From Acaryochloris thomasi RCC1774 (GTDB taxonomy: Bacteria; Cyanobacteriota; Cyanobacteriia; Thermosynechococcales; Thermosynechococcaceae): 32,000 bases of DNA. The DNA lies in assembly GCF_003231495.1 (NCBI RefSeq), contig NZ_PQWO01000005.1, positions 1 to 32,000 on the forward strand, read 5' to 3'. Positions within the stretch are counted from its first letter, which is position 1, and each line of letters begins with the position of its first letter. Under the pieces are notes generated by a model. That model was given only the letters and a program-made list of their open reading frames with translations, did no database searches and was not told the DNA's origin. The position numbers and the translations under genes are program-made. Positions 470 through 17,772 of this stretch are shown here, piece after piece.

Positions 470-2665
470 ATGTACTCGATCAATCGCGAGGGATATATTG
501 TTTGGACGAACGACAAACAAAGAGAGATGCTTGGATACCAAAAAGAAGACTGTATTGGACAGCATGTTAGTGAATTGTACGTAGATTTAGCATCGAATAG
601 AAAGGTAATTGAGCACCTAGATAAGCAGGAAAATCTCCGCAATTACGATGCACAAATGAAGTGCAAAGACAATTCAAATAAAGACGTTTTGATCTCCTCT
701 AGTACTTGTTCACAAAGCAGTGAATTTGCTCAGAATCGATACTTTACTTACGACATCACAGCGCGTAAATGTATGGAGCGCGCGCTACGGAAAAGCGAAA
801 ATATATTTCGATTGCTGACGGAAAATTTGCGTGAAGTCTTTTGGATGACTAGCATCAATCTTACAGATCCGAGTCAGCAGCAAATTTTATATATTAGTCC
901 TGCCTATGAAGACATCTGGGAACGCGATCGGCAATCTCTATATCACGATCCTATGAGGTGGATTGAGGCGATACATCCAGAGGACCGGGAGCGCGTCACG
1001 GAACATTTCATGGACCAGGTAATTCAAGGTGGCTTCGATCATCAATATCGAATTATACGACCAGATGGTTCTATTCGCTGGATTAGAGATCGGGGCTTTC
1101 CTTTAAGCGATTATTCGGGGGAAACAATCACAATTACGGGATTTGCCGAAGATATTACCCAACGCAAAGCGACCGAAGATAGACTCCGCCTGCTTGAATC
1201 TGTTGTAGTTAATGCTAACGATGCAGTCATCGTCACTGAAGCAGAACCGTTTGGTGAACCTGGACCACGTATTGTCTATGTCAACGAAGCTTTCACGCAA
1301 TTGACAGGCTATCAGTCAGAGGAAGTCATCGGCCAGACCCCGCGTATTCTGCAGGGACCAAAAACCGATCGCAAAATACTTGATAAAATTCGGGCCGCTT
1401 TAGAAACTTGGCAGCCGATTAGGGTTGAGTTAGTCAACTATTGCAAAGATGGTTCTGAATTTTGGGTTGAGCTGATGATCACACCCATTACCAATGAATC
1501 AGGCTGGTTTACCCACTGGATCTCTGTCCAGCGGGATATTACTGAACGAAAACAAACAGAGATGATTCTGCAACAGAATGAACAGCGATTTCGTGCCCTG
1601 ATTGAGCATGCCTCAGACATCATCATCCTGCTAGATACGGATGGAATGATTTCCTATATCAGTCCCTCGATTGAGAGCACTTTAGGATATTTTTCTCAAG
1701 ATTTTATAGGTAAGCCAATGGTCACCTGGCTTCACCCAAATGACCAAAACAAGATCACAAAAGCTTTATCTAAGTCTTCACAACGACAGAAAGCGGAGAA
1801 TATCCCCGAAATACGCTGGCGAAGCATTAAGGAGGAGTGGCGCTTCTTCGAAGTGATCATCAAAAAGTTGTCTGAGGGCACCGCATTCAGTGGCTTTGTC
1901 GTCACCGCTCATGACATGACTGAGCGCAAAAAAATTGTGAAGATGCAGCAAGACTTGGAGCGGGAGAAAGAGCTGAGCGAGTTAAAACTTCGCTTTTTCT
2001 CTATGGCATCCCATGAATTTCGGACGCCTCTGAGTGTCATTTTAATTGCAGCCCAGACGATAGAAAACTATGGAAGCATAGAGCAGGCTGAAAAATTAAT
2101 TCGGAATACTCAGCGGATTCAAAGCAGTGTCTACCATTTGAGAAGCATGTTAACGAATGTTCTTTCAATTGCTAGAACTGAGGCAGAGAAAGTAGAATTT
2201 TCCCCCCAACATCTAAATTTATATAAATTCTGTTCTCAAATCATGAAGGTACTGTATGAAGAACAAAAAGAAAAAATGTCTGAATCTCAAATTAAATTCG
2301 CGCTTGACGGTACAAATAGAGAAGTATTCTGTGATCCAAAGTTGCTCCATTCGATGTTGACAAATCTACTGTCTAACGCGGTCAAGTATTCTCCAAAAGG
2401 TGGCGTCATTGACTTCTCTGTGACAATCCAATCTGAGTGGATTGAATTTGTAGTCAAAGATCAGGGGATTGGGATTCCTCTAGAAAATCAATCCCATTTA
2501 TTTGAGCCATTTTACAGAGGAGAGAATGTCGGCAAAGTCCAAGGCTCTGGTTTGGGGCTAGCCATTGTCAAAAGGTATTCAGACTTACATGGGGGGCAAG
2601 TCGCCTGCGAGAGTGTTGAAGGCATTGGAACTACATTTACGATTCATCTACCCGTTAGCTCATGA
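470..2665 (+). CDS. Multi-PAS sensor histidine kinase (PAS/PAC x3-4, HisKA, HATPase_c); 5' end probably truncated
   Basis: 731-aa ORF. PAS/PAC blocks include YRIIRPDGSIRWIRDRGFP and NYCKDGSEFWVELMITPI...SVQRDITERK. H-box is SHEFRTPL (His codon 2012-2014). ATPase boxes are LLSNAVKYSP, DQGIGIP and GSGLGLAIV. The same frame is open upstream to 230 and encodes another PAS C-terminus. Confidence 0.9.
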   Translation: MYSINREGYIVWTNDKQREMLGYQKEDCIGQHVSELYVDLASNRKVIEHLDKQENLRNYDAQMKCKDNSNKDVLISSSTCSQSSEFAQNRYFTYDITARKCMERALRKSENIFRLLTENLREVFWMTSINLTDPSQQQILYISPAYEDIWERDRQSLYHDPMRWIEAIHPEDRERVTEHFMDQVIQGGFDHQYRIIRPDGSIRWIRDRGFPLSDYSGETITITGFAEDITQRKATEDRLRLLESVVVNANDAVIVTEAEPFGEPGPRIVYVNEAFTQLTGYQSEEVIGQTPRILQGPKTDRKILDKIRAALETWQPIRVELVNYCKDGSEFWVELMITPITNESGWFTHWISVQRDITERKQTEMILQQNEQRFRALIEHASDIIILLDTDGMISYISPSIESTLGYFSQDFIGKPMVTWLHPNDQNKITKALSKSSQRQKAENIPEIRWRSIKEEWRFFEVIIKKLSEGTAFSGFVVTAHDMTERKKIVKMQQDLEREKELSELKLRFFSMASHEFRTPLSVILIAAQTIENYGSIEQAEKLIRNTQRIQSSVYHLRSMLTNVLSIARTEAEKVEFSPQHLNLYKFCSQIMKVLYEEQKEKMSESQIKFALDGTNREVFCDPKLLHSMLTNLLSNAVKYSPKGGVIDFSVTIQSEWIEFVVKDQGIGIPLENQSHLFEPFYRGENVGKVQGSGLGLAIVKRYSDLHGGQVACESVEGIGTTFTIHLPVSS

Positions 2666-3339
2666 AGATTCTATTAGTTGAAGATGACTTTTCCCTGGCC
2701 GAGGTACTCACTGAAGCGCTTAATGATTATGGCTATGTGGTTGATGTTGCGATCGATGGGGAAAAGGGCTGGTATCAGGCAACAGAAGATAACTACGGCA
2801 TTATTCTGCTCGATTGGATGTTACCCAAACTTGATGGCATCACTGTGTGTAAGCGATTGCGGGAAACTAGCTATACGGTGCCGATTCTAATGATGACCGC
2901 TCGGGATGGCAGTACTGACAAGGTGATGGGATTAGATGCAGGTGCTGATGATTATGTTGTTAAGCCCATCGATTTAGCAGAGCTGCTTGCAAGAATTCGA
3001 GCTTTACTACGACGTGGTCCTAGCACAATGATGCCTGTCCTAACCTGGGGAGACATACAGTTGAATCCTAGCAATCATGAAGTTTTCTATCAAAAGCAGG
3101 AAATAAACCTGACACCCAAGGAATTTTCGCTACTTGAGCTTTTTTTGCGTAGTGGTCGCCAGGTTCTCAGTCGTCGAATGATCCTCAATCAACTTTGGGA
3201 TTTTGAAGATCAACCAGAAGAAGAAGCCGTCAAGGCCCACATCAAGTTACTCCGACGCAAGTTCTCCTTAGCAGGTGTCCCTACAGATCCAATCAAAACC
3301 ATTCGCGGTATAGGCTACTGCCTCAAAAAACTCAACTAG
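2662..3339 (+). CDS. OmpR-family response regulator (REC + winged-helix Trans_reg_C)
   Basis: 225 aa. REC motifs are MKILLVEDD, ILLDWMLPKLDG and DDYVVKP. The C-terminal region LTPKEFSLLELFLRSGRQVLSR...IRGIGYCL is typical of OmpR/PhoB output domains. Its ATG overlaps the kinase stop (ATGA at 2662-2665), suggesting translational coupling. Confidence 0.92.
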   Translation: MKILLVEDDFSLAEVLTEALNDYGYVVDVAIDGEKGWYQATEDNYGIILLDWMLPKLDGITVCKRLRETSYTVPILMMTARDGSTDKVMGLDAGADDYVVKPIDLAELLARIRALLRRGPSTMMPVLTWGDIQLNPSNHEVFYQKQEINLTPKEFSLLELFLRSGRQVLSRRMILNQLWDFEDQPEEEAVKAHIKLLRRKFSLAGVPTDPIKTIRGIGYCLKKLN

Positions 3340-3401: not shown

Positions 3402-3608
3402 ATGAACAGCTCATTAAGGCAACGCTCATACACAGGCAAAGACCTCTTTGTTGGCATTGATATTCGTAAACGCACCTACTCAGTTGCAGTGGTGATGGAG
3501 GGAGCGCTGGTCAAGAAATGGCAGACGTTCGCAGACCCAGTGAAGCTGGCCCATCAGCTCATTGCCTATTTCCCTAAAGCCTTACTACAAGGAGCACGAA
3601 ATTTTTGA
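3402..3608 (+). pseudogene. IS110-family transposase, N-terminal stub only (about 60 aa)
   Basis: An AAGGAG Shine-Dalgarno lies 8 nt upstream of ATG 3402. MNSSLRQRSYTGKDLFVGIDIRKRTYSVAVVMEGALVKKWQTFADPVKLAHQLIAYFPKA fits the DEDD_Tnp_IS110 N-terminus (fvGIDvhK..y.vav). Full-length enzymes exceed 300 aa. Similarity stops where the convergent TPR/GT41 gene ends (3585). Confidence 0.6.
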
Positions 3609-5987
3609 GAACAGATGTTCTAATGCTCGGGTCTGATCTTCTGCATTACATAGCGCAGAGACAGCCATTGTGGATCGTAGAGTGCTGCGCAATGTTGCCA
3701 ATTTCTCTAGATCTAGAGTGGCAGCTATAACCCTTTCAACATAAGCTTCAGGTGAATAGGTCACCCATTTCGCTAGACCTACAGTGCTTAACAGGCTCAA
3801 TCCTACCCGACTCACGTGAGTTTGCCCCGCTAGCGTGATCACAGGTACTCCCATCCATAGCGATTCACAGGTGGTGGTGGTGCCATTGTAGGGGAAGGGA
3901 TCGAGGGCAAGATCTAGACGGTGGTAGAACGCTAGGTGTTCTGCACTGTCCTGAAGAGGACCATAGAGCTGTACACGCTCACGCGAAATATCATGCTGGG
4001 CGAATAAGCGCCAGAATCGCTCCTGGGTAGGCGGATCATCTAAGCAGCGCATCTTCATGAGCAGTTGGGCTTCAGGGAGCGCCTGCAGGATCTTGGCCCA
4101 ACACTCAATCACCTGGGGAGATAGCTTAGCGAGATTGTTGCAAGACCCAAGGGTGAGGTTCCCTGTGGTGAGAGCAGGTAAGTTATTGACGGGTGGGGCA
4201 TTGGGCGGCGGCTGGTAGCACAAAAAACACTGGGGCAGTCGGATCAAGGTCTCTGTATAGTCACACTCCGTCAAGCCAGGAGGATCAGCTAAGGCGTCAG
4301 TGATGCGGTAGTTCATGGTCGTCAGCCCTGTGGTGTTGGGGTAACCCAGGTAGGTGATTTGAATCGGGGCGGGCTGACGGGCAAAAACCGGCAGGCGATT
4401 ATTACCGGTATGACCAGCAAGGTCGATCAAGATATCGATGTGATCTTCTTGAATCAGATCTGCTAGTTGCTCATCCGTGAGTGCATAGACATCTCGCCAC
4501 AGATGCCCGAGGGCTTTAATTCTCTCCGTATCGGCATCAGGGACGGCGACGTTGGCATAGCAATAAACCTGAAACGCCTCACGATCGTGATGCTTGAGAA
4601 TCGGTTCAATAAAGTAGGCAACGGAATGCTGGCGAAAGTCTGGTGACAGGTACCCAATGCGGAGCGGCTGATCAATCGAGTAAGAGGGCAGGGTGGTCAC
4701 CTTCGCCTGTTCCTGTGCACCCCAGCGACGGTGGGCCTCAGCAATAAAGTCACGGCTGTAGCTAGAGTCGTAGTTGAGGGCATAAAGAAAATTCGATTGG
4801 GCGGGATGATAGTCAGGCTCTAGCTTTAACAAGGTCTGAAAGCTGGCAATCGCTTCAGGAATCCGCCCCTGAGCAGTGAGGGCAAATCCCAGATTAATAT
4901 AGGCAGAAGCACTGTCCGGCTCTAGGGCAATTGCCTTTTGACAGTGGGTAATCGCACCCGAGACTTGACCCACAACACCGAGGGTAAATCCTAAATTGAT
5001 ATGGGCCTGAGTTAAGTCAGGATCAAGTTGAAGGGCTTGGCGCAGATGTGCGATCGCATCTTCAAACCGTCCTTGGTCGCTATACACAGACCCCAAGTTA
5101 CAGTGGGCTGCGGCATTGGCTGGATTTTGGCTGAGCAAACGTTTTAGAAGTGCGATCGCATCTTCAAACCGTCGCTGAGCTTTAAGCACCAGAGCCAACC
5201 GAGTAACCACATCAGCATTTTGGGGATGGTGAATGCGAGCCTGCTTAAGCTGTTGTTCAGCGGCAGTAAAGTTCTTCTGCTCTTGGAGAAGGGCGACAAG
5301 ACGCAGATGGGCCTCAAGCCATTCAGGACGAGAGCGCAGACTTTCCTGATAGGCAAGGATTGCAGCTGCGTCATTTCCTTGAGCAGAGAGGGCATTGCCC
5401 AAATTGTAGTGGGCTTCAGGATCGTTGGGGGACAGTGCAATGGCTTGCTGATGGCAGCGCACCGCTTCATCGAACCGGCCTAGGGCTTTCAGCGTATTGC
5501 CCAAATTGGTATGGGCGCGGGTGAGCTGGGGGTTGTGGGAAATAGCAGCTCGATAGCAGATCGCCGCTACCTCTAGCTGCTCTTGCTGCTGGAGTAATCT
5601 GCCCAGATTAAAGTGGGCTGCGGCTAGGTTAGGCTGCAGTTGAATCGATTGGCGGAAAGCTGACTCTGCCTCTGCTGCGTTCCCTTGAGCCTGGAGAGTA
5701 TTGCCGAGATTGAACCAAATGTCGGAGCGGTTGGGCTGGAGAGTGAGGGCTTTTTTTTGGGTTGCGATCGCATCTTCCAAGCGTCCCATTTGCTTCAGGA
5801 GACTTCCCATATTTACACGCACATCGACGTGATTGGGTTCTAGAGAAAGCACCTGTTGATACACTTCTAGTGCTTGAGAAAAATTACGCTGACGATGCCA
5901 GTGAACAGCTTGGTTAAACAATTGTTGAACATTGGCCTGAGGATCATGCGACTGTTCAGAATCCAAAGGAGCAGACATCAATAACAT
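3585..5987 (-). CDS. TPR-repeat protein with C-terminal GT41 (SPINDLY / O-GlcNAc-transferase-like, COG3914-type) glycosyltransferase domain
   Basis: 800 aa. The N-terminal ~400 aa are consecutive 34-aa TPR units (A.....A..L.P......NLG). The C-terminal half carries the pattern IGYLSPDFRQHSVAYF...IDILIDLAGHTGNNRLPVFA...ITYLGYPNTTGL..MNYRITD...DPFPYNGTTTTCESLWMGVPVITL, characteristic of bacterial SPY/OGT-like GT41 enzymes. Confidence 0.85.
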   Translation of the reverse strand: MLLMSAPLDSEQSHDPQANVQQLFNQAVHWHRQRNFSQALEVYQQVLSLEPNHVDVRVNMGSLLKQMGRLEDAIATQKKALTLQPNRSDIWFNLGNTLQAQGNAAEAESAFRQSIQLQPNLAAAHFNLGRLLQQQEQLEVAAICYRAAISHNPQLTRAHTNLGNTLKALGRFDEAVRCHQQAIALSPNDPEAHYNLGNALSAQGNDAAAILAYQESLRSRPEWLEAHLRLVALLQEQKNFTAAEQQLKQARIHHPQNADVVTRLALVLKAQRRFEDAIALLKRLLSQNPANAAAHCNLGSVYSDQGRFEDAIAHLRQALQLDPDLTQAHINLGFTLGVVGQVSGAITHCQKAIALEPDSASAYINLGFALTAQGRIPEAIASFQTLLKLEPDYHPAQSNFLYALNYDSSYSRDFIAEAHRRWGAQEQAKVTTLPSYSIDQPLRIGYLSPDFRQHSVAYFIEPILKHHDREAFQVYCYANVAVPDADTERIKALGHLWRDVYALTDEQLADLIQEDHIDILIDLAGHTGNNRLPVFARQPAPIQITYLGYPNTTGLTTMNYRITDALADPPGLTECDYTETLIRLPQCFLCYQPPPNAPPVNNLPALTTGNLTLGSCNNLAKLSPQVIECWAKILQALPEAQLLMKMRCLDDPPTQERFWRLFAQHDISRERVQLYGPLQDSAEHLAFYHRLDLALDPFPYNGTTTTCESLWMGVPVITLAGQTHVSRVGLSLLSTVGLAKWVTYSPEAYVERVIAATLDLEKLATLRSTLRSTMAVSALCNAEDQTRALEHLFSKISCSL

Positions 5988-6276
5988 ATCCTCAGCGTAC
6001 GTTTCCTCAACCTAGTATATTCGGATGGATTTTGAAATATAAATTCATAGAACAGAAAATCTTTGCACACGCCTCTCAGCCCCAATCCAAGCAAAGTTCT
6101 CAATCGAAGACAGGGCATCTAAATCATCAACCAACACCTTTAAAGAATCGCAGATCCATCACTGATGCGGGTGAATAAATATCGCGTCTATTTAAGCAGC
6201 TCGTAATCACAAGAAAAATGACAGATATATAAACAGTCCAAGTAATGACGACTCGATATATATATGTTAGATTATC

Positions 6277-6326
6277 TTCGGGGAACACAAGCATGACCTA
6301 GACGCGGGGTTTTATAGGTCTTACTC
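6277..6326. promoter_or_regulatory. Conserved paired CGGGG(TTT) element upstream of FG-GAP/RTX gene 1 (copies at 13472-13540 and 17354-17402)
   Basis: 6304-6326 GCGGGGTTTTATAGGTCTTACTC and 17355-17377 GCGGGGTTTTAAAAGTCTTACTG match at 20/23 positions. A second CGGGG lies 26-27 nt away in both (6279 and 6305; 17356 and 17383). The third locus has GGCGGGGTT at 13472 and TTCGGGGG 54 nt later. Function unknown. Confidence 0.4.
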
Positions 6327-6726
6327 ATATTTTTTTGGGGTCTTACAGCTTTAACATGTTGCGTTGCATTGGCTTTGCGGCCTATGGATTGACCTGTGCA
6401 GCTTGATTTGAAGGGAAATCCTATTCTCGGGAAAGCGGTCTCCGAGCTATCCAGACAATGCTATGAATGGCTTGAATATCGGGCTATGTGGAGCTTCTTT
6501 TCGCTACCACGATATCCTCGTGCGCAATTACTTTCCTGGCCCTTCAGTCCTTTCTATAGCTCTTTATTTTCAAGAGAATTAGCAGATTAATCACATAACT
6601 TAAAGTTGAATCTCTAGAATATTTTTTATTTGATTCATCTATTTCTAGTAGAGTTATATTTCTATATAGAAACTCCTACAATTCTCTTTTATTCATCTCT
6701 ATTTTTGGCGTCAGAGAGGCAAAAAA

Positions 6727-9396
6727 ATGTCGCAATCATCTTTAGATCTTTCTAGCCTCAACGGCAGTAATGGCTTTGTCATCAACGGCATTGACATATC
6801 TGATCAGTCTGGCTTCTCTGTGAGTGGTGCCGGCGATATTAACGGTGATGGCATTGATGACCTAATTATTGGGGCCTACCTTGCCGACCCCGACAGCACC
6901 AATGCTGCAGGTGAGAGCTATATCGTCTTTGGCAGCAGCAACGGCTTCAACAGCAGCCTCAACCTCTCCGATCTCAATGGCAGCAACGGCTTTACCATTA
7001 ACGGCATTGATATATCTGACCAGTCTGGCTTCTCCGTCAGTAGTGCTGGCGATGTCAACGGAGATGGCATCGATGACCTGATTATTGGGGCCTTTGCCGC
7101 AAATCCCAACGGCAACAACTCAGGTGAGAGCTATGTCGTCTTTGGCAGCAGCAATGGCTTCAGCAGCAGCCTTAACCTCTCCGATCTCAACGGCAGCAAC
7201 GGCTTTACCATTAACGGCATTGATCCAACAGATCAATCTGGCGTTTCCGTGAGCAGTGCTGGCGATGTCAACGGCGATGGCATTGATGACCTGATTATCG
7301 GTGCCAGGGCAGCAAACCCCGATGGCAACACCGTTGCGGGTGAGAGCTATGTTGTCTTTGGTAACAGTAATGGCTTCAGCAGTAGCCTCAACCTGTCCGA
7401 TCTGGACGGTAATGACGGCTTTACGATTAACGGAGTTGATCCATTTGATCAATCGGGTTTCTCCGTCAGCGGCGCCGGGGATATCAATGGTGATGGCATT
7501 GATGATGTCATTATTGGTGCCATGTATGCTGACCCCGATGACAACGATGCTGCAGGCGAGAGCTATGTGGTGTTTGGCAGCAGTAGTGGCTTTGACAGCA
7601 CCCTCAATCTATCGACACTCAACGGGAGTAATGGGTTTGTCATTCACGGCATTGACTCGATGGATCAGTCGGGTCGATCGGTCAGCAACGCCGGGGATAT
7701 TAATGGTGATGGCATTGACGACCTAATTATCGGAGCCTTGGGTGCAGACCCAGATGGCAGTAGTTCTGCAGGTGAGAGCTACGTGGTGTTTGGCAGCAGT
7801 AATGGCTTCAGCAGCACCCTCAATCTATCCGATCTAGATGGCAATAACGGCTTCACAATCAGCGGTATTGATCCATTCGATCAATCGGGGTATTCCGTGA
7901 GCAGTGCTGGGGATGTCAACGGTGACGGCATTGACGACCTGATTATTGGTGCCAGGGCGGCAGGCCCCAATGGCAATCTTGTCGCAGGCGAGAGCTATGT
8001 GGTGTTTGGCAACAGCAATGGCTTCAGCAGCACCCTCAATTTATCCAATATCAATGGCAGCAATGGCTTTGCTATTAACGGTATCAATCTAGAGGACCAA
8101 TCTGGTTTTTCCGTCAGTGGTGCTGGAGATGTCAACGGTGATGGCCTTGATGACCTGATTGTCGGTGCTCCCTATGCTGATCCGGGTGGCAATGGCGCAG
8201 CAGGCGAGAGCTACGTGATCTTTGGCTTTGAAAGCGGAAGCGGAGCGACCGAGGGTCCCGATCAGCTGGTCGGGACGCCGGAGAACGATACCTTAGAAGG
8301 CTTAGCGGGTGATGATCTGATCTCGGGCGGTAACGGTGCTGACGTCCTAGATGGTGGTCTCGACAATGACACTCTCTTGGGAGAAACAGGCAACGACACA
8401 CTCCTCGGTAACGCTGGCCTTGACTTGCTCCAAGGGGGTGGCGGTAGCGACTCCCTGAGCGGAGGGCTAGGTAACGACACCCTTGAGGGACAATCAGGCA
8501 ACGATACACTCCTCGGTGACGCTGGCCTTGACTTGCTCCAAGGGGGTGGCGGAAGTGACTCCCTGAGCGGAGGGCTAGATAACGACACCCTCGAAGGACA
8601 GGGCGGAAACGATACACTCCTCGGTAACGATGGCGCTGACTCACTTCGAGGGGGCAGCGGCAGTGACTCCCTAAGCGGCGGACTCAACAACGACACCCTT
8701 GAAGGACAAGGCGGAAACGATACACTTCTCGGCGGCAGCGGCAATGATTCCCTTATAGGTGCTTCGGGAAGCGATCGCCTGCAGGGCGGCGGCGGTGATG
8801 ATGTTCTCGGTGGCGGTGGCAACAATGACACCCTTGAAGGGCAAGCAGGGAACGATACCCTCCGGGGCAACAGTGGCTTCGATTCTCTCGCGGGCGCAGC
8901 CGGGAATGATCTCCTACAGGGAGGCTTGGCGAATGATTCTCTCAATGGGGGCAGTGACAACGATACCCTTGAAGGACAGTCAGGCTTTGATGTCTTGCTA
9001 GGGGGCAGCGGCAACGACATCCTGGTCGGTGGCTCCAACAATGACACGCTCACGGGCGGTATTGGGGCTGACACCTATCGCTTTGATACGGGCTTTAATA
9101 GTCTAGGTACGGATACGATTACCGACTTTGCCAGTAACGATGTATTGGAGTTAAGCCAGTCCGTCTTTGACTTGGGCGGTGTTGCGGGCACGAATATTGT
9201 TGCCAGTGAGTTTGCTACAGTGAACAGCTTAGTTGCGGCAGAAAATAGTGCAGCGCTGATCGTCTACAACCGCAATACTGGCGATCTGTTCTTCAATGCC
9301 AATGGCTCCGCTGCAGGGTTGGGCACAGGTGGCCAATTCGCTCAGTTGGAGAACAACTTCAATTTGATGGCTGAGCATATTGAGCTGACGGCTTAA
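6727..9396 (+). CDS. Secreted-type giant protein: seven FG-GAP (integrin-alpha-like) repeats + RTX nonapeptide block + conserved C-terminal module
   Basis: 889 aa with no N-terminal signal peptide. Seven ~65-aa repeats each contain S.S.AGD[IV]NGDG[IL]DD[LV]I[IV]GA (about nt 6727-8240). A long run of GGxGxDxLx repeats spans about 8270-9085. The C-terminal block TYRFDTGFNSLGTDTITDF...GGQFAQLENNFNLMAEHIELTA is shared with the three following genes. I see no Cys, Lys or Trp. Confidence 0.9.
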   Translation: MSQSSLDLSSLNGSNGFVINGIDISDQSGFSVSGAGDINGDGIDDLIIGAYLADPDSTNAAGESYIVFGSSNGFNSSLNLSDLNGSNGFTINGIDISDQSGFSVSSAGDVNGDGIDDLIIGAFAANPNGNNSGESYVVFGSSNGFSSSLNLSDLNGSNGFTINGIDPTDQSGVSVSSAGDVNGDGIDDLIIGARAANPDGNTVAGESYVVFGNSNGFSSSLNLSDLDGNDGFTINGVDPFDQSGFSVSGAGDINGDGIDDVIIGAMYADPDDNDAAGESYVVFGSSSGFDSTLNLSTLNGSNGFVIHGIDSMDQSGRSVSNAGDINGDGIDDLIIGALGADPDGSSSAGESYVVFGSSNGFSSTLNLSDLDGNNGFTISGIDPFDQSGYSVSSAGDVNGDGIDDLIIGARAAGPNGNLVAGESYVVFGNSNGFSSTLNLSNINGSNGFAINGINLEDQSGFSVSGAGDVNGDGLDDLIVGAPYADPGGNGAAGESYVIFGFESGSGATEGPDQLVGTPENDTLEGLAGDDLISGGNGADVLDGGLDNDTLLGETGNDTLLGNAGLDLLQGGGGSDSLSGGLGNDTLEGQSGNDTLLGDAGLDLLQGGGGSDSLSGGLDNDTLEGQGGNDTLLGNDGADSLRGGSGSDSLSGGLNNDTLEGQGGNDTLLGGSGNDSLIGASGSDRLQGGGGDDVLGGGGNNDTLEGQAGNDTLRGNSGFDSLAGAAGNDLLQGGLANDSLNGGSDNDTLEGQSGFDVLLGGSGNDILVGGSNNDTLTGGIGADTYRFDTGFNSLGTDTITDFASNDVLELSQSVFDLGGVAGTNIVASEFATVNSLVAAENSAALIVYNRNTGDLFFNANGSAAGLGTGGQFAQLENNFNLMAEHIELTA
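8392..8715 (+). repeat. Three tandem copies of a 108-bp (36-aa = four RTX nonapeptides) unit inside the RTX block
   Basis: The unit starts (AACGA[CT]ACACT[CT]CTCGG) at 8392, 8500, 8608 and 8716, an exact 108-nt period. The encoded units are NDTLLGNAGLDLLQGGGGSDSLSGGLGNDTLEGQSG, NDTLLGDAGLDLLQGGGGSDSLSGGLDNDTLEGQGG and NDTLLGNDGADSLRGGSGSDSLSGGLNNDTLEGQGG. Confidence 0.85.
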
Positions 9397-9482: not shown

Positions 9483-9562
9483 TTTTGGGTTGCGATCGCA
9501 TCTCCAACTTGCCCCCTCTGCTTAGACAAACATCCTAGATTCCAGAACACATCCCATCGACG
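9483..9562 (-). pseudogene. Decayed copy of the 5' coding region of the TPR/GT41 gene
   Basis: 9483-9507 TTTTGGGTTGCGATCGCATCTCCAA matches 5755-5780 TTTTGGGTTGCGATCGCATCTTCCAA, and similarity continues to CACATC..CGACG. The minus-strand translation GCLSKQRGQVGDAIATQN aligns with MGSLLKQMGRLEDAIATQK of the intact protein. No start codon or long ORF remains. Confidence 0.7.
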
Positions 9563-9930
9563 AGGTCACAGCGCCCCTTATTTGCGCATTGAGTCACAGC
9601 AAGAAATTGCAGCTAGCACTGCAGCGAAGAATATAGCTTCAGTAGTTTTACCAAGATTTCAACCGATACTCTCAACTTATTTCAGTAAAATTCTTGAGGC
9701 TGTCACCCTAAGCCGTTGCCTAAGATGAAAACGGTTACCTAAAGCTAGCCCTCAGCTCTACCTATTTTTACTGATTTCTAAATAATTTTTTGAGCAGCTC
9801 AGTATTTTTTATCAATCGCTAGATTAACCTTCCAACCTGAACGATGCTCGCCATCATCTCAGGTTTTCTAGTCATAGATGTATGACTTAGATCCGTTTGG
9901 CCTAGCCAATTTTCCCACCCAATCTATTAC

Positions 9931-10006: not shown

Positions 10007-13000
10007 ATGGCAGATAACGCATCTTCTCTATACCGCGCTCTTTTAATTGCCCAAGATTATTTGACCTCCTTTGCTGCCAGCGAAACCTTCACCGACAATT
10101 TGACTACGGCTTTTGGCAGTCTTCTCAACACTTCAACTGCTGCAGAATTTCGACAGCAATGGTTAACCGGTGACTTCAGCGGCATCTCAACGATCAAAGT
10201 CATCTCATCTAGCGACATCAACAGTGCCTTTACCCCCGCAGCCCAAACCATTTACCTCTCTTCAGAATTTCTGACCGCCAACACCGACAATCCTGCCGCC
10301 ATCGCCACAGTGCTGCTAGAAGAGATCGGTCACGCCCTCAATGCCCAGCTCACAGAAAGCAATACAGGCGATGAAGGAGAAGTCTTCGCAACCTTAGTCC
10401 AGGACGTGGAGCCAAGGATCTCCATGCAATTCGAAGCCATCTATGAAAATCCGGGCCTCTTACAAGAAGACCACCACGATGACTTTGAAGAATTCCAAGC
10501 CTCATCAAGATGGACCTCTACTGCAACCAATGGCTCAGGTTTACAGCAAGGCGACCCCACAACCTTAACGTGGAGCATTGTCGCAGACGGCACCTTCATT
10601 CCTGGCTTCAACGGTGAACCCGATGCCAACAGTGACTTAGTTGCATTCTTCAACAACATCTACGGCACCACGGCAGACTGGCTACCGATCTTTAGCAGCG
10701 TCTTTGACCGCTGGAGTGCCCTATCCGGCGTCAACTATGTCTTTGAAGCCAATGATGACGGAGCCGCATTTGGCAGTACCGTAGGACTTGTAGGCAGCCG
10801 TGGCGATGTGCGCATTGGCGGTCACTTTATTGACGGCGAATCGGGTTCCAACACTCTGGCCTACAACTTCTTCCCCAGCAACGGGGAAATGGTCATTGAT
10901 ACCTCTAACTTCAACTTCTATTCCAACACCAACAACAATTCTCTCAGCGTTCGCAATACCCTCGCCCATGAACTGGGACACGGCTTGGGATTAAGTCATG
11001 TCGAATCGAACAACGCCAAATTTTTGCTCGAGCCTTTTATCAGCACCGACTTTGATGGCCCTCAAATTGACGACATTCTAGGCTTACACCGCCTCTATGG
11101 TGATGCCCTCGAATCCAGCACAGGCAACCATAACCAATCCAATGACACTATTGCTGCAGCCACCAACTTAGGGACTGTCAATTCAGGAATGACGGTCTCC
11201 ATCGGCACAGACGCTTCCGATAGCAGCACCGTTGTTGCAGCCAATCAGACCGACTTCGTTAGTATCGACGACAACTCAGATACTGATTTTTATCGATTTG
11301 CGATCGCAAGCCCCTCCGCCATTGACGTCATTCTCAATCCCCGTGGTCCCTCCTACAACCAAGGCCCGCAGGAAGGCGCACAGGCCCTCTTCAACGCCAA
11401 AGCACTCAGCAATTTATCCCTAGCCGTTTTCAACAGCAGCGGCACTCTATTACGGAGCGTCAATAACGCTGCAGCCGGGGAGAGCGAGAGCATTGCAGGT
11501 CTGCAGCTATTGTCTCCGGGAGCCTATTACGTACGGGTAACGGGCAGCGCTAACAATGTGCAGCTCTATGATTTAAGTATTGCAGTCAATGCCAGTTCTG
11601 CATCCAACGATAATTTTGCAGATCGCTTTGTTCTAGCCGGTGAAAACACAGCAACAACCGGCTCTAACATCGGATTCACAGGCGAAACAGGCGAATCTAG
11701 CCAATCCGGTGTTCTTCACTCAGCCTGGTGGAGTTGGACCGCATCCTCGACCGGACAGGCCACCCTTGACACGAATGGCAGCAACTTTAATACCTTCCTA
11801 TCTGTCTTTACGGGCAGCTCAGTCAATAACTTAACGACCATTGGGCAAAACAATAACGGCGGCAACGGCAATCAAAGCCAGCTCAGCTTTACAACGGTCG
11901 CCGGAAGCACTTACCAGATTGCCGTAGATGGCGTCTCTAGCGATCAAGGTAACATTGCGCTCAACCTCAACTTTGCCAACAACGATAGCTTCGCCAATCG
12001 CCTTGCTCTAAGTGGTCAAAATACTAGCGTGACCGGCTCTAACGTCGGTTTCACCGGCGAAGCAGGGGAGTCCGCCCAAAGCGGCACCATCAACTCAGCT
12101 TGGTGGAGCTGGACTGCTGCTGCAACGGGAGAAGTCACGGTCGATACCAACGGGAGTAACTTTGATACCTTCCTATCGGTCTTCACCGGCAATGCAGTGA
12201 ATAGCTTGACAAGCGTAGGGCAAGACGATGATGGCGGCACGAATCTCCAGAGCCTCTTAACGTTCTCAGCCACAGCCGGGACAACGTATCACATCGCGGT
12301 TGATGGCTTCAGCGACAATACAGGCGACATTACGCTGAACCTAGCTCAGAACCTTGAAGGTATCCAACGCCTTGGCACCGGCGGTTCAGATCAGCTTATA
12401 GGTGGTGTCGGAGACGATACCTTAATCGGGTTCGGCGGCAATGACGTGCTATTTGGCGCCAACGGTGGCGACCTATTACGCGGCGGTAGCGGCAACGATG
12501 ACATCAGCGGCAGCGGCGGTATTGACACCCTGCTGGGCGAAGGTGGTCAGGATACCCTCGCAGGCGGTATCGGCGGCGATCAACTACAGGGGGGAAGCGG
12601 TAACGACTCCCTGCGTGGCGAAGCTGATAACGACACCCTACAAGGACAAGGGGGCGGCGACACGCTAATTGGCGGCAGCGGTGACGATTCATTGGTGGGT
12701 GCTTCAGGAAGCGACCTGCTGCAGGGAGGAGGAGATAACGACGTTCTCAGTGGCGGCGGCAATAACGATGTTCTTGCAGGCCAAGCAGGCAACGACACTC
12801 TGATTGGCAACAGTGGCTTGGACATCCTCACGGGACATGCGGGACATGATCTGCTTCAGGGTGGCCTTGCGAATGATGAACTCAATGGCGGCAACGATAA
12901 TGACACGCTCGAAGGCCAAGCGGGCTTCGATATTTTACTCGGCGGCAGCGGCGACGACATTCTGGTGGGTGGCTCGAATAATGACACGCTCACAGGCGGT

Positions 13001-13336
13001 ACCGGGGCCGACACGTTCCGGTTTGACAGTGGCTTCAATCGCCTAGGCGTCGATAGAATTACAGACTTTGCCAATGGCGATGTACTGCAGCTTAGTCAGT
13101 CAATCTTTGGTTTGCTCGGCAGCGCAGGTAGCAACATTATCGCTAGCGAATTTGCCACGGTAGGGAGCTTAGCAGCAGCAGAAAGCAGTACAGCAGTGAT
13201 TGCTTACAACAGCAACGATGGCCGCTTATACTTCAATTCTAACGGAGCAGCAGCTGGGCTAGGTTCGGGAGGCCAGTTTGCCCAGTTAGACAATACTTTT
13301 GATCTAAAGTCCAATCATATTGAACTGATTGCATAG
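10007..13336 (+). CDS. RTX-type secreted zinc metalloprotease: matrixin (M10A/MMP-like) catalytic domain + PPC-like domain + two 125-aa repeats + RTX block + shared C-terminal module
   Basis: 1109 aa. The zinc site HELGHGLGLSH lies at 10967-10999, followed by ...LLEPF...DDILGLHRLYGD, which is matrixin-like spacing. A DFYRF...YYVRV region resembles a pre-peptidase C-terminal domain. Repeats lie at 11606-11980 and 11981-12355. The RTX block spans about 12390-13020. The C-terminus TFRFDSGFNRLGVDRITDF...GGQFAQLDNTFDLKSNHIELIA is homologous to the FG-GAP paralogs. No signal peptide and no Cys. Confidence 0.88.
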   Translation: MADNASSLYRALLIAQDYLTSFAASETFTDNLTTAFGSLLNTSTAAEFRQQWLTGDFSGISTIKVISSSDINSAFTPAAQTIYLSSEFLTANTDNPAAIATVLLEEIGHALNAQLTESNTGDEGEVFATLVQDVEPRISMQFEAIYENPGLLQEDHHDDFEEFQASSRWTSTATNGSGLQQGDPTTLTWSIVADGTFIPGFNGEPDANSDLVAFFNNIYGTTADWLPIFSSVFDRWSALSGVNYVFEANDDGAAFGSTVGLVGSRGDVRIGGHFIDGESGSNTLAYNFFPSNGEMVIDTSNFNFYSNTNNNSLSVRNTLAHELGHGLGLSHVESNNAKFLLEPFISTDFDGPQIDDILGLHRLYGDALESSTGNHNQSNDTIAAATNLGTVNSGMTVSIGTDASDSSTVVAANQTDFVSIDDNSDTDFYRFAIASPSAIDVILNPRGPSYNQGPQEGAQALFNAKALSNLSLAVFNSSGTLLRSVNNAAAGESESIAGLQLLSPGAYYVRVTGSANNVQLYDLSIAVNASSASNDNFADRFVLAGENTATTGSNIGFTGETGESSQSGVLHSAWWSWTASSTGQATLDTNGSNFNTFLSVFTGSSVNNLTTIGQNNNGGNGNQSQLSFTTVAGSTYQIAVDGVSSDQGNIALNLNFANNDSFANRLALSGQNTSVTGSNVGFTGEAGESAQSGTINSAWWSWTAAATGEVTVDTNGSNFDTFLSVFTGNAVNSLTSVGQDDDGGTNLQSLLTFSATAGTTYHIAVDGFSDNTGDITLNLAQNLEGIQRLGTGGSDQLIGGVGDDTLIGFGGNDVLFGANGGDLLRGGSGNDDISGSGGIDTLLGEGGQDTLAGGIGGDQLQGGSGNDSLRGEADNDTLQGQGGGDTLIGGSGDDSLVGASGSDLLQGGGDNDVLSGGGNNDVLAGQAGNDTLIGNSGLDILTGHAGHDLLQGGLANDELNGGNDNDTLEGQAGFDILLGGSGDDILVGGSNNDTLTGGTGADTFRFDSGFNRLGVDRITDFANGDVLQLSQSIFGLLGSAGSNIIASEFATVGSLAAAESSTAVIAYNSNDGRLYFNSNGAAAGLGSGGQFAQLDNTFDLKSNHIELIA

Positions 13337-13951
13337 AGAGTCATTTGCATAACACAACATTTACCAACCTTGAAAGTTCGGACTTTTGGGAATCTATTAT
13401 CTTTAGTCAATTTCAATTGTGTAAAGAACGATATATCTAACTAAATCTGATTAGATACATGCTAAGTTAATGGCGGGGTTACAAAATTTTTGCAAAAATG
13501 TAGGGCAACGCTAGCCTTACTCTTATTCGGGGGATTCGGGTTCTATTGGCTATGGATAATGGACAGAGGTGTCAATAATCCACGGATCTAATTGGGCCTA
13601 CGCAAAAATTTTATCGTTCTGAAATATTGATCTTTGAGCTATACAACAGATGTTCAGATTAAGCTCTGAGCGGATAAAGCACCGTCTGGTACGGCAATGA
13701 GATGCCTTTAATCGTGTACATCCTGCTTTAGCTCTTCTCCAAAGTTCTTCCTAGAAGTGAATAGGCAGATAACTCTCACTGCTTGGGTTTTATTCCCCAA
13801 CGTTGGCATAGTCGAATCCACACCCGTTTTGGTCAGGGAATAGCTTCGACTAGAGCTGCATAAGCAATTTTGGCAGGGAAATACTTCTGAGTAGGGCTGC
13901 ATATATCTTCTCCTTATCTATCTTTTTTCTGGTGTCAGCAAGGCAAAAAAT

Positions 13952-16900
13952 ATGTCTCAATCATCTTTAGATTTTTCGAGCCTTACTGGCAGCAATGGCT
14001 TTGTTATTAGCGGCATTGATGAAAGTGATTATTCAGGCCATTCGGTCAGCGGTGCGGGTGATGTCAACGGTGATGGCATTGACGATCTGATTATCGGCGC
14101 TCCCTTGGCCGACCCCAATGGTAACGAGAGTGCGGGGGAGAGCTATGTGGTATTCGGTGACAGCGGCTTTGATAGCAGCCTTAATCTAGCCAGTCTCGAC
14201 GGTAGCAATGGCTTTGTTATTAGCGGCATTGATGAAAATGATTTTTCCGGTGACTTGGTCAGCGGTGCGGGTGATGTCAACGGTGATGGCATTGACGATC
14301 TGATTATCGGCGCTTCCTTCGCCGACCCCAATGGTAGCGAGAGTGCGGGGGAAAGCTATGTAGTGTTTGGTAGCAGCGGTTTTGATAGCAGCCTTGATCT
14401 CGCAAGTCTTGATGGTAGCAATGGCTTTGTTATCAGCGGCATCGCAACCTTTGATAGGTCAGGCCGTTCGGTGAGCAGTGCTGGTGATGTCAATGGTGAT
14501 GGCATTGACGACCTGATTATCGGGGCCTTCAGGGCGGATCCAGAGGGTATCGATAATGCGGGTCAAAGCTACGTAGTGTTTGGTCACAGCAGTGGTTTTA
14601 GCAGCAGTATCAGTCTTTCAAGCCTGGACGGTAGCAACGGTTTTATCCTGGATGGCCTTAATCCATCTGCTCAAGTCGGTCATTCGGTTAGCAGTGCCGG
14701 TGACATTAACGGTGATGGCATTGACGATCTAATTATTGGTGCACCTGGTGCTATCAACCCAGAGAGTCAAGAGATTAATGGGCAGAGTTATGTAATTTTT
14801 GGTGACAGCAGTGGTTTTGATAGCACCATTGACCTATCAAGCCTTGACGGCAGCAATGGCTTTACCCTCAATGGTATTGATTCCAATACTAACTCTGGCT
14901 ATTCAGTGAGCAGCGCTGGGGATATCAATGGTGATGGCATTGACGACCTAGTTATCGGTGCCCCTTTTGTCAATGTCAATGGCCGCATCAATTACTATGG
15001 CGAGAGCTATGTAGTATTTGGCAACAGCAGTGGTTTTGACAGCAGCATTGATCTGGCAACCCTTAATGGCAGCAATGGCTTTACTCTCAACGGTACTCGT
15101 TTCGAAAGCTTTTCAGGTAGTTTAGTCAGCAGTGCGGGTGACGTCAACGGCGATGGGATTGACGACCTGATTATCCGTGACTATGGCCAGGGCTATGTCG
15201 TATTTGGCAACAGCAGCGGGTTTGATAGCAGTCTCGATCTACGGCGCCTCGACGGTGACAATGGTTTTGTCATTGGCAGAGCGATTGGTTCAGTCAGCAG
15301 CGCGGGGGATATTAATGGTGACGGAATTGACGATTTGATCCTCGGGACATCCGGTGCTGACCCTGATGGCATCGATAATGCGGGCGAAAGCTATGTGGTG
15401 TTCGGCAATGCGTCTCCTGAACTAGATTTGAGTGGGGTAGATAATAGTACCTCTCCCACCAGCATTGACTACGAAGCCATCTTTATCGGCGATCCCTTGG
15501 TGATTGTGGGGACTGGCCTCAGCCTTACGGATGCTAACTCCGACAGGATAGTAGGGGCCACGGTTACGATTACCAACCTTACTAATGGCTTAGCCGAGAG
15601 CCTCAGTGCGATCACGACCGGCACTAATATTACAGCAACCTATGATTCAGGCACCCTCACCCTCAGCGGCACCGATACGGCTGCCAACTATCAGCAAGTC
15701 CTCCAGACCGTCACTTACCAAAATTTGACGCCCACGGGTGCAACACGAACCGTTGAGTTTGTTGTTGACGATGGCGAGACCCATTCCAATAGCAGTGCGA
15801 TCGCAACCACCACCGTGACTTTTGAAGTGGGTGATGCACCGGTTGCCCCTAATGACCGCATTACCGTGAATGAGACCGGTCGCGTCAATGGCAACGTTCT
15901 AGCGGATAACGGCGATGGAGCAGATAGCGACCCGAATGGCGATCTCTTGACGGTCTCTGCCGTCAATGGCCGCGATGCAGATATCAACACTCAAATTACG
16001 CTCCTTTCAGGCGCCTTGCTTACGCTCAATAGCGATGGCACCTTTCAGTATGACCCCAATAATCAATTTGCATCCCTTGCGGCTAGGGAAAACGCCACAG
16101 ATCAATTTACCTACACTGTGACCGATGGCGATGGGGAAACAGATACGGCCACCGTTGACGTTGAAATTAAAGGCTTGGCGGGGGCCTATCGCATTGGTAC
16201 CGCTGGCCAGGATCAGCTTGTGGGAAGCGCCTTTGGGGATACCTTAGAGGGTCTAGCAGCAGATGATGTGCTGATCGGGGGCCGCGGTCGCGATTCTCTA
16301 GCAGGGGGAAGGGGCAACGACTCCCTGAGTGGCGGCAGCGGCAGTGACACTCTCAAAGGCCACGCAGGGAACGATACCCTCCGGGGTGGTGACGGCATTG
16401 ACTGGCTCCAAGGTGGCCGCGGTCACGATTCTCTTGTCGGCGGTCTCAACAACGATACGCTCGAAGGCCAGACAGGCAATGATACGCTCTTGGGCGGCAG
16501 CAATAGTGATGTGCTAATCGGCGGTGCTGGGATTGATGTACTCTACGGGGGACTAGGCAGTGATGTCCTCAGGGGTGGTCAAAATCGCGATACCCTCAAC
16601 GGTCAAGCAGGGAACGATACGCTTGAAGGCCAAGCTGGCTCTGATATTTTGCTGGGCGGCGGCGGGAACGATATTCTCGTGGGTGGCGCGAATAACGATA
16701 CGCTCACGGGCGGTTCTGGAGCTGACACGTTCCAGTTCGATGCGAACTTCAATCGTTTGGGTATCGACACAATTACCGACTTTTCCAGCAACGATGTGCT
16801 GCAGTTAAGCCAGTCCATTTTCGGGTTAAGCGGTGCAGGCGTTACTGAGATTTCTATGCAGGAATTTGCCTCGGTGGGTAGTCTAACTGCGGCTGAGAAT

Positions 16901-17050
16901 AGTAGCGCTTTGATTACCTACAATCGCAATGATGGCAGTTTGTACTTTAATACCAATGGCTCCACTTCTGGGCTGGGTTCAGGGGGTCAGTTCGCTCAGT
17001 TAGACAATGCCTTCGGTCTCACGGCTAGCCATATTGAGCTTGTGAGCTAG
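13952..17050 (+). CDS. FG-GAP (seven repeats) + adhesin-like beta module + VCBS/cadherin-like domain + RTX block + shared C-terminal module
   Basis: 1032 aa. Seven GD[IV]NGDGIDDL repeats span about 13952-15420. A module with ...ITATYDSGTLTLSGTDTAANYQQVLQTVTYQN... spans about 15420-15827. A VCBS-like segment ...DQFTYTVTDGDGETDTATVDVEIKG spans about 15830-16160. RTX repeats span about 16185-16740. The C-terminus matches the paralogs. No signal peptide and no Cys. Confidence 0.9.
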   Translation: MSQSSLDFSSLTGSNGFVISGIDESDYSGHSVSGAGDVNGDGIDDLIIGAPLADPNGNESAGESYVVFGDSGFDSSLNLASLDGSNGFVISGIDENDFSGDLVSGAGDVNGDGIDDLIIGASFADPNGSESAGESYVVFGSSGFDSSLDLASLDGSNGFVISGIATFDRSGRSVSSAGDVNGDGIDDLIIGAFRADPEGIDNAGQSYVVFGHSSGFSSSISLSSLDGSNGFILDGLNPSAQVGHSVSSAGDINGDGIDDLIIGAPGAINPESQEINGQSYVIFGDSSGFDSTIDLSSLDGSNGFTLNGIDSNTNSGYSVSSAGDINGDGIDDLVIGAPFVNVNGRINYYGESYVVFGNSSGFDSSIDLATLNGSNGFTLNGTRFESFSGSLVSSAGDVNGDGIDDLIIRDYGQGYVVFGNSSGFDSSLDLRRLDGDNGFVIGRAIGSVSSAGDINGDGIDDLILGTSGADPDGIDNAGESYVVFGNASPELDLSGVDNSTSPTSIDYEAIFIGDPLVIVGTGLSLTDANSDRIVGATVTITNLTNGLAESLSAITTGTNITATYDSGTLTLSGTDTAANYQQVLQTVTYQNLTPTGATRTVEFVVDDGETHSNSSAIATTTVTFEVGDAPVAPNDRITVNETGRVNGNVLADNGDGADSDPNGDLLTVSAVNGRDADINTQITLLSGALLTLNSDGTFQYDPNNQFASLAARENATDQFTYTVTDGDGETDTATVDVEIKGLAGAYRIGTAGQDQLVGSAFGDTLEGLAADDVLIGGRGRDSLAGGRGNDSLSGGSGSDTLKGHAGNDTLRGGDGIDWLQGGRGHDSLVGGLNNDTLEGQTGNDTLLGGSNSDVLIGGAGIDVLYGGLGSDVLRGGQNRDTLNGQAGNDTLEGQAGSDILLGGGGNDILVGGANNDTLTGGSGADTFQFDANFNRLGIDTITDFSSNDVLQLSQSIFGLSGAGVTEISMQEFASVGSLTAAENSSALITYNRNDGSLYFNTNGSTSGLGSGGQFAQLDNAFGLTASHIELVS

Positions 17051-17055
17051 ATCTT

Positions 17056-17162
17056 TTTTGAGGGTTGCGATCGCATCTCACAGACCACTCCATAATCATG
17101 ATGTATAACAGTAGGCCAAGCCTCTTCTCTTAGACACGTCATCTAAGCATCTACAAACATCC
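17056..17162 (-). pseudogene. Second decayed copy of the TPR/GT41 gene 5' region, split by a ~36-nt insert
   Basis: 17056-17079 TTTTGAGGGTTGCGATCGCATCTC matches 5755-5777. 17116-17162 CCAAGCCTCTTCTCTTAGACACGTCATCTAAGCATCTACAAACATCC matches relic 1 (9504-9555) and the intact gene. The intervening 17080-17115 has no counterpart. Confidence 0.6.
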
Positions 17163-17747: not shown

Positions 17748-17772
17748 TTTCTGGCGTCAGAGAAGCAAAAAC
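17748..17772 (+). promoter_or_regulatory. Conserved leader directly upstream of the three FG-GAP/RTX start codons
   Basis: TTTCTGGCGTCAGAGAAGCAAAAAC-ATG (17748-17772), TTTTTGGCGTCAGAGAGGCAAAAAA-ATG (6702-6726) and TTTCTGGTGTCAGCAAGGCAAAAAAT-ATG (13926-13951). It is absent upstream of the matrixin gene. Confidence 0.5.

Follow-up and report, generated by a model that had tools for sequence, protein, structure and literature searches.

In a 32,000-nt stretch of DNA from Acaryochloris thomasi RCC1774 (NZ_PQWO01000005.1, positions 1 to 32,000; hereafter the window), a gene encoding a tetratricopeptide-repeat (TPR) glycosyltransferase of family GT41 is transcribed divergently from the first of four RTX exoprotein genes (RTX1 to RTX4). 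By alignment with solved structures, the enzyme is shown to be a soluble TPR-GT41 protein of SPINDLY type with a complete active site. From the genes that recur around related enzymes and related exoproteins, we give roughly even weight to the view that TPR-GT41 enzymes are one of several interchangeable modules that modify FG-GAP/RTX exoproteins, the window enzyme serving the array next to it. A system in which these proteins would be O-glycosylated and then exported by type I secretion is plausible on the basis of gene context, and we consider the case for it to be evenly balanced.

Gene content was read from the open reading frames (ORFs) of the window and from Pfam and NCBIfam domain matches, and the locus is arranged as follows.

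3585-5987, minus strand: TPR-GT41 gene; 800 aa, with about 11 TPRs ahead of a catalytic domain of SPINDLY type (aa ~393-800).
5988-6726: shared divergent intergenic region, with a conserved block at ~6242-6340 and a leader of ~40 nt before the RTX1 ATG.
6727-9396, plus strand: RTX1; 889 aa, with a 7-bladed FG-GAP propeller, an RTX beta-roll block and a conserved C-terminal region of ~140 aa.
9485-9574, minus strand: fragment of the GT41 5' end (aa 48-77, in the TPR2 region), credible as a relic; it lies ~430 bp ahead of RTX2.
10007-13336, plus strand: RTX2; Peptidase_M10 (serralysin-like), PPC and RTX regions without an FG-GAP propeller; same C-terminal domain.
13952-17050, plus strand: RTX3; FG-GAP propeller, Big_9/cadherin-like domain and RTX.
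17034-17078: second "relic" of the original prediction; a short similarity at a HIP1 site, of doubtful origin.
17773-20631, plus strand: RTX4; seven FG-GAP repeats, RTX and the conserved C-terminal domain.

Two claims of the original prediction, i.e., a TPR plus SPINDLY/OGT-type GT41 gene at 3585-5987 and its divergence from the first RTX gene across about 740 bp, agree with this layout: Pfam and the structural alignment concur on the enzyme, with all of the catalytic residues that we checked being present, and the gap is 739 bp.

Pfam matched TPR families at aa ~20-392 of the GT41 protein (E 1e-73) and PF13844 (Glyco_transf_41) from aa 393 (E 7e-49). The TPRs carry N[LM]G at a 34-residue period (N59, N93, N127, N161, N195, N297, N331 and N365), forming an Asn ladder, which in the OGT TPR structure is a peptide-backbone binding feature. 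A homology search with the TPR half returned generic TPR proteins only and no orthologues. The true start codon is probably M4, at position 5978, because the orthologue described below begins MSAPL. In an exact look-up, the GT41 protein was absent from a large protein collection (no self-hit) in which RTX1, pheS, glmS and ChpX were present. The ORF is intact despite the missing entry, which an annotation gap or a different gene call may explain.

Among solved structures, the catalytic part matched Arabidopsis SPINDLY (SPY) with E 1.7e-110 and 44% identity over 409 aa, Thermobaculum OGT with E 4e-91, human OGT with E ~2e-43 (in two separated pieces owing to the inserted domain of OGT), XcOGT with E 1e-37, and HMW1C/NGT chains with E ~1e-11 in the C-terminal lobe only. 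The SPY alignment was a single collinear stretch (query 3-412 onto SPY 419-835) with small gaps only, and without the intervening domain of metazoan OGT. The SPY residues H495/S496, N661, K665, H728, Y744 and T747-749 correspond to H454/S455, N617, K621, H684, Y700 and T703-705 of the window enzyme, and all are conserved. They include the catalytic Lys (K621, equivalent to SPY K665 and human OGT K842), the His-Ser pair (H454/S455), the phosphate-binding TTT (T703-705), and a Tyr (Y700) at the position of SPY Y744, which is Cys917 in human OGT, narrowing the sugar pocket. The roles of the catalytic and nucleotide-binding residues were described in a structural study of SPY, in which Y744 was argued to leave the pocket too small for GlcNAc (PMC9715652).

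From these alignments, the GT41 protein appears to be an active Ser/Thr O-glycosyltransferase of SPY type that works in the cytoplasm. Since it is of this type rather than the HMW1C/NGT type, O-glycosylation of Ser/Thr would be expected and not glycosylation of Asn. By analogy with SPY, the donor is probably not UDP-GlcNAc, because Tyr700 would fill the pocket in the same way, and GDP-fucose is a candidate. In two Azospirillum plasmids (L189 and L193), the TPR-GT41 gene that is closest to that of the window among plasmid-borne ones (46% identical) is immediately preceded, on the same strand, by a gene for GDP-L-fucose synthase, an indirect hint that would fit a fucose donor as in SPY. No GDP-L-fucose synthase gene was found within the 32-kb window.

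RTX1 to RTX4 have several features that would fit type I secretion substrates. PF00353 (the Gly/Asp-rich RTX nonapeptide) was matched in all four proteins, with E values from 1e-58 to 1e-38, and PF01839 (FG-GAP) in seven stretches of RTX1, seven of RTX4 and six of RTX3; RTX1 also has 12 RTX stretches. The FG-GAP blades carry Ca-binding D.NGDG.DD loops and have a repeat period of 213-216 nt. None of the four contains Cys, and each N-terminus leads without interruption into blade 1 or the protease region, with no evident signal peptide. The last 140 aa are 69-84% identical between the four, and this C-terminal domain appears to be of the kind used in type I secretion; by these features, the four proteins fit type I substrates.

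The divergent pair is found again in a 4.6-kb metagenome contig of a related organism. Here, the RTX1 orthologue (P0207) is 79% identical to RTX1, and the divergent gene upstream, of which 249 residues are available, matches the window GT41 from M4 onwards with 76% identity. Beyond this close relative, the connection between GT41 enzymes and FG-GAP/RTX proteins runs through an uncharacterised family, DUF4915/TIGR03032. Genes of this family directly adjoin FG-GAP/RTX genes in two of six chromosomal loci, adjoin 61-71%-identical homologues of RTX1 in three genomes, and immediately precede the gene for the cyanobacterial GT41 that is closest to the window enzyme (57% identity). RTX3 itself is a full-length homologue (42% identity) of a TIGR03032-adjacent protein of Nostoc ATCC 53789. 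When annotated plasmids were searched for DUF4915, 15 records representing 14 distinct loci were recovered, and a large secreted or surface repeat protein adjoined DUF4915 in 13 of the 14. These neighbours were FG-GAP/cadherin/Big_9/RTX proteins in seven cyanobacterial loci, autotransporters in four alphaproteobacterial loci, a choice-of-anchor-Q protein in Planctomyces and a PMP-repeat protein in Diaphorobacter. Among the cyanobacterial neighbours, one shares 68% identity with the RTX1 propeller and is homologous to RTX3 over its full length.

DUF4915 also occurs fused to enzyme modules: to GNAT four times, to GT2 once, and to TPR-GT41. On Acaryochloris plasmid pMB01, the gene for a DUF4915...TPR-GT41 fusion diverges from one for an FG-GAP/Calx-beta/RTX protein of 2863 aa. 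Nostoc C057 has a DUF4915-GNAT-GT2-TPR-GT41 fusion, and the next gene downstream of it codes for an FG-GAP/cadherin/RTX protein; a decayed copy of this fusion is present in Nostoc C052. The fused GT41 of C057 is OGT/XcOGT-like, whereas the window enzyme is SPY-like, so that two GT41 clades have been recruited to the same gene context. Judged by their neighbours and domains, the DUF4915/TIGR03032 cassettes look like an undescribed system for modifying exoproteins.

Adjacency of a TPR-GT41 gene to an FG-GAP/RTX gene was thus seen in three independent cyanobacterial lineages among the approximately 10 GT41 loci examined. If a genome is assumed to have ~5000 genes, of which ~10 encode FG-GAP/RTX proteins, the probability of such an immediate neighbour is roughly 0.4%, and the observed frequency is far above this rough estimate. 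TPR-GT41 genes also adjoin genes for other exported proteins. Two Methylosinus plasmids (L190 and L191) have a TPR-GT41 gene adjoining TpsA filamentous-haemagglutinin genes, an arrangement that recalls HMW1C-HMW1, but with a TPR-type enzyme. In Azospirillum (L189), C39-ABC and HlyD type I secretion genes lie 4.5 kb from GT41. The order in Burkholderia glumae is fliC-fliD-fliT-GT41-sugar genes, and a flagellin glycosyltransferase is required in the related B. cenocepacia (PMC4462625). In Synechococcus elongatus, ogt is one gene from pilA, and Ogt is needed for glycosylation of the pilin (PMC9306852).

In the mechanism that we favour, the main clients of the window enzyme would be the neighbouring RTX1-4 exoproteins. 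Knowledge of the family suggests that the TPR superhelix, with its Asn ladder, would bind unfolded chains in the low-calcium cytoplasm, and that Ser/Thr, rather than Asn, would receive single small sugars. The linkers between the blades, which are rich in Ser (~36% Ser+Thr), are candidate sites, as may be the Thr of GNDTL repeats, with GDP-fucose as the putative donor. A type I secretion system encoded elsewhere would export the modified chains, which would fold outside the cell on binding calcium. By analogy, transfer to Ser/Thr would be compatible with type I export of unfolded chains.

Several observations weigh against this mechanism. In our first survey, genomes and metagenomes were scanned with the GT41 protein, either whole or as its catalytic domain, and the RTX1 propeller, RTX block and C-terminus were compared by tblastn with the 160 best homologue loci and their flanks (2.05 Mb; at most 55% identity, many phyla). 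No FG-GAP/RTX gene was found at these 160 highest-scoring loci, save for one weak RTX match; the 160 included no orthologues of the window GT41, and the cyanobacterial GT41 fusions were missed by these scans. Seven other cyanobacterial GT41 loci (L003, L005, L009, L021, L166, L167 and L181) have no FG-GAP/RTX neighbour. Conversely, eight FG-GAP/RTX loci have no GT41 within ~10 kb, six being the surroundings of close FG-GAP/RTX homologues in cyanobacterial genomes and two being identical copies on plasmids of Nostoc flagelliforme. The neighbourhood survey that the original prediction had called for therefore has a divided outcome, with no general enrichment around GT41 genes as such, but with the pairings in Acaryochloris, Nostoc C057 and the related contig that emerged later. 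Two of the three lineages with adjacency were reached via DUF4915, which is already RTX-linked, and the numbers are small. The fused GT41 modules of pMB01 and C057 are only 31-33% identical to the window enzyme; with the fused modules being OGT/XcOGT-like, the recurrence is by analogy and not by orthology. Synteny at ~78% identity can persist without a functional link, so the conserved pair in the related contig has this limit.

The window itself also contributes negative points. By tblastn it contains no DUF4915; no sugar-nucleotide genes lie next to the GT41-RTX1 pair; and its ORFs over 32 kb include no gene for an ABC transporter, a membrane fusion protein or a TolC-like protein. In orthologue P0207, 64 of the 93 Ser/Thr of the RTX1 propeller are kept, compared with 85% identity elsewhere, so that on this sequence comparison Ser/Thr are no better conserved than other residues. 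The glycan on RTX1-4 is putative, and its basis is gene context rather than direct evidence.

The linker peptides include SSNGFSSSLNLS, and the six inter-blade linkers of RTX1 read SSNGF[NS]SSLNLSDLNGS or close variants; the Ser+Thr fraction of the window linkers (0.36-0.37) is at the top of a set of homologues, by a slight margin. RTX1 contains 29 N-X-S/T sequons, with 13 in the propeller (positions 12-443) and 15 of the NDT/NDS type in the RTX block. Our count therefore confirms what the original prediction had described by eye: the linker motif, 13 propeller sequons in the first gene, and additional NDT sequons from RTX repeats. Compared with composition-preserving shuffles of each protein, sequons were in excess in RTX1 (29 observed, shuffle mean 15.2, z 4.3) and RTX4 (32 observed, shuffle mean 18.8, z 3.5) and marginally so in RTX3 (22 observed, shuffle mean 14.5, z 2.2), with no excess in RTX2, the protease without a propeller (22 observed, shuffle mean 19.4, z 0.7).

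The excess in RTX1 and RTX4 would be expected if the enzyme acted like HMW1C/NGT, N-glycosylating the Asn of linker and GNDTL sequons, and NGTs do belong to GT41 and act before export (PMC3012730, PMC4550697). However, judged from the repeats, the excess is not independent evidence, because its source is two positions of one repeated blade motif plus one type of RTX repeat. The blade motif, [LF][ND]LS.L[ND]G[ST]NGF, is a family-wide consensus common to thousands of FG-GAP propellers with 55-80% identity, from Nostoc, Microcoleus, Synechocystis and Gloeocapsa and also from Nitrosomonas and Magnetococcales. In 29 homologues there are 0 to 2.0 sequons per linker, a range that includes RTX1 (1.83) and RTX4 (1.86); homologues with 1.7-2.0 have no GT41 within 10 kb, and RTX3, from the same array, has only 0.5. 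Just 6 of the 13 propeller sequons of RTX1 are kept in its GT41-linked orthologue P0207, NLS having become NLA three times. The enzyme points the same way, given the E value of 1e-11 with HMW1C-type chains compared with 1.7e-110 with SPY, and an N-terminus that is a TPR array and not the all-alpha domain of NGTs. We rejected N-glycosylation on the grounds of enzyme type and sequon turnover and consider it very improbable. With it falls the part of the original prediction that allowed for an NGT/HMW1C enzyme and put weight on N-X-S/T sequons. The proposal that the RTX proteins are substrates loses its Asn acceptor but gains comparative support from the conserved pair and from the DUF4915 fusions and bridge.

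A stronger competitor, to which we assign a substantial minority share of the probability, is that the GT41 protein acts in the cytoplasm as an O-glycosyltransferase of general or pilin-directed function, like those of S. elongatus and Nostoc punctiforme, with the RTX adjacency representing inherited synteny and no functional coupling. PilA is the target of the sole cyanobacterial GT41s that have been studied genetically (PMC9306852), the window itself contains a pilin-like gene (26332-26868), and conservation of the pair is seen in one close relative only; the lack of GT41-RTX adjacency in the 160 homologue loci and the seven other cyanobacterial GT41 loci points in the same direction. Set against these are the independent occurrence of TPR-GT41 beside FG-GAP/RTX in Acaryochloris and Nostoc C057, the bridging of the two gene families by DUF4915, and the distance of the pilin-like gene, which is 20 kb away, compared with the single gene that separates S. 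elongatus ogt from pilA. An indirect role, in which RTX expression or export would be controlled via the shared divergent promoter region by, for example, a regulator, chaperone or secretion component that the enzyme modifies, seems improbable, if less so than N-glycosylation. The divergent arrangement with its conserved intergenic block would suit it, SPY and OGT regulate transcription factors in eukaryotes (PMC9715652), and a two-component system lies next door (470-3339). However, there is no regulator gene between or within the GT41-RTX1 pair, the DUF4915-fused enzyme modules adjoin structural exoprotein genes and not regulators, and Nostoc C057 has a two-component system unrelated to that of the window. 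Because the response regulators are unrelated, a shared two-component system as the common regulator was ruled out.

The intergenic region between GT41 and RTX1 (5988-6726) would measure 748 bp if GT41 starts at M4. The block at 6242-6340 is far better conserved in the related 4.6-kb contig (L081) than the flanking intergenic DNA, and may be a shared regulatory site. An Rfam scan of the region gave no match, and a promoter/terminator scan gave nothing above background and nothing convincing. A leader of ~40 nt, TTTATTCATCTCTATTTTTGGCGTCAGAGAGGCAAAAA, stands right before the start codons of RTX1, RTX3 and RTX4 (6688-6726, 13908-13951 and 17734-17772).

Two relics of the GT41 5' end had been proposed next to other members of the array. 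The one at 9485-9574, on the minus strand, translates to DVFWNLGCLSKQRGQVGDAIATQ and aligned with GT41 aa 48-77 (tblastn E 0.002); on this alignment it is credible. This relic upstream of RTX2 indicates that the GT41-RTX junction predates the expansion of the array, having been copied as the array grew. The second, at 17034-17078, reduces to a similarity of only ~30-45 nt centred on a HIP1 palindrome (GCGATCGC) at 17067 and is doubtful. There are 15 HIP1 palindromes in the window (at 5764, 9492, 17067 and 12 other positions), and short similarities seeded by such sites can, on this example, mimic gene relics.

If TPR-GT41 enzymes do modify FG-GAP/RTX proteins, the window might be a DUF4915-less member of a wider, undescribed system, in which modular cytoplasmic enzyme cassettes would be dedicated to giant secreted repeat proteins before their export. 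Its cassettes would combine DUF4915/TIGR03032 with GNAT, GT2, TPR-GT41 or sulfotransferase/hydroxylase modules, often with cysC nearby. In cyanobacteria its clients would be FG-GAP/cadherin/RTX proteins; in proteobacteria and planctomycetes they would be autotransporters and other beta-helical surface proteins. The SPY-type GT41s would then be bacterial protein O-fucosyltransferases, or transferases of another small sugar, acting on type I substrates. We put this combined proposal forward tentatively, and consider it rather unlikely to be correct in all its parts.

DUF4915/TIGR03032 was found at loci L163, L166, L168, L170-L180 and L184-L188. A cysC gene (adenylyl-sulfate kinase) adjoins three DUF4915/FG-GAP-RTX loci (L170, L172 and L184), and sulfotransferases occur in or near L175 and L186, one being fused to an Asp/Asn beta-hydroxylase; these genes hint at sulfation or hydroxylation of the same exoproteins. 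A GT2 glycosyltransferase of 315 aa lies close to an FG-GAP/RTX gene in two Nostocales-type loci (L082, 7852-8799; L163, 12470-13417), and L169 has a PMT_2 gene near an RTX gene. Comparison of DUF4915 with solved structures by sequence gave no meaningful match, and a literature search for DUF4915/TIGR03032 returned no paper.

The two-component system adjoining GT41 comprises a PAS histidine kinase and an OmpR-type regulator. Other genes of the window include a ChpXY CO2-hydration gene, pheS, glmS, lrgAB and the pilin-like gene, which is on the minus strand. The ChpXY product falls in a 90% cluster that takes its name from Thermosynechococcaceae MAGs, as befits cyanobacterial DNA. A gene at 23470-24270, on the plus strand, encodes a 266-aa coiled-coil protein with a weak match to HmpF (pilus motility taxis; E 1.7e-4); it is ~2 kb from the Pilin_GH-type gene at 26332-26868, with glmS in between. 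Downstream of RTX4 are genes for two paralogous small proteins of 129 and 117 aa (20747-21136 and 21526-21879, both on the minus strand). Both have a signal peptide, a linker that is acidic and rich in Pro/Glu, and a conserved C-terminal module with two Cys, ITSDGSNSLVTCGPNGAAF.VA.VSPGC.VLK.NSPPGQSTNA; Pfam and NCBIfam gave no match to either protein.

Glycosylation has been reported for two RTX proteins of cyanobacteria, SwmA and oscillin, in a review that names no enzyme (PMC3034196). If the link proposed here is real, the locus would provide a concrete candidate class of enzyme and a testable gene pair for glycosylated RTX proteins such as these, and a bacterial set of clients for SPINDLY-type GT41 enzymes. 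The association with DUF4915/TIGR03032 similarly offers a handle on an uncharacterised family that appears to be dedicated to giant surface proteins in several phyla. Type V adhesins (HMW1C), flagellins and pilins are known to be glycosylated in the cytoplasm before they are exported. Our literature search returned no report of pre-export glycosylation of type I-secreted RTX proteins or of GT41 paired with RTX clients, and no client or donor for a bacterial SPY-like enzyme.

Among related systems, the DUF4915/TIGR03032 cassettes resemble the window in their client family (FG-GAP/cadherin/RTX) and in having TPR-GT41 among the attached modules; they differ in that the window has no DUF4915 gene and that its GT41 belongs to the SPY-like and not the OGT-like clade. 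HMW1C/NGT enzymes with HMW1 (and also with Knh and EmaA) follow the same logic, in that a GT41 is encoded with a large adhesin, which is modified in the cytoplasm before secretion (PMC4550697, PMC3012730). However, NGTs have no TPRs, attach N-linked hexose to N-X-S/T and have type V clients, and the window enzyme is only distantly related to them. The TPR flagellin O-glycosyltransferases, Caulobacter FlmG and Burkholderia FlmQ/BCAL0111, are like the proposed enzyme in being cytoplasmic, in having an unfolded secretion substrate and in being encoded beside the gene for their client (PMC7591256, PMC4462625), as is also seen at the B. glumae locus. Their clients are flagellins exported by the flagellar type III route, and the sugars are nonulosonic acids or dideoxyhexose derivatives; FlmG is likened here by description.

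Closer in lineage are S. elongatus Ogt (Synpcc7942_0051) and N. punctiforme OgtA, which are also cyanobacterial TPR-GT41 enzymes without a secretion signal (here likened by description) and are required for glycosylation or accumulation of exported PilA (PMC9306852). In those cases the client is a pilin, the route is the type IV pilus pathway and GlcNAc was detected, whereas the neighbours of the window enzyme are RTX proteins of the type I kind and its pocket Tyr argues against GlcNAc. The closest likeness in architecture is with Arabidopsis SPINDLY, a protein O-fucosyltransferase (PDB 7y4i and 8dtf) in which, as in the window GT41, about 11 TPRs precede a collinear catalytic domain that lacks the intervening domain. 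All of the catalytic and GDP-binding residues reported for SPINDLY, including K665 and the pocket Tyr744, are retained (PMC9715652). The clients of SPINDLY are nucleocytoplasmic regulators, whereas the window enzyme is bacterial and is encoded beside genes for secreted proteins.

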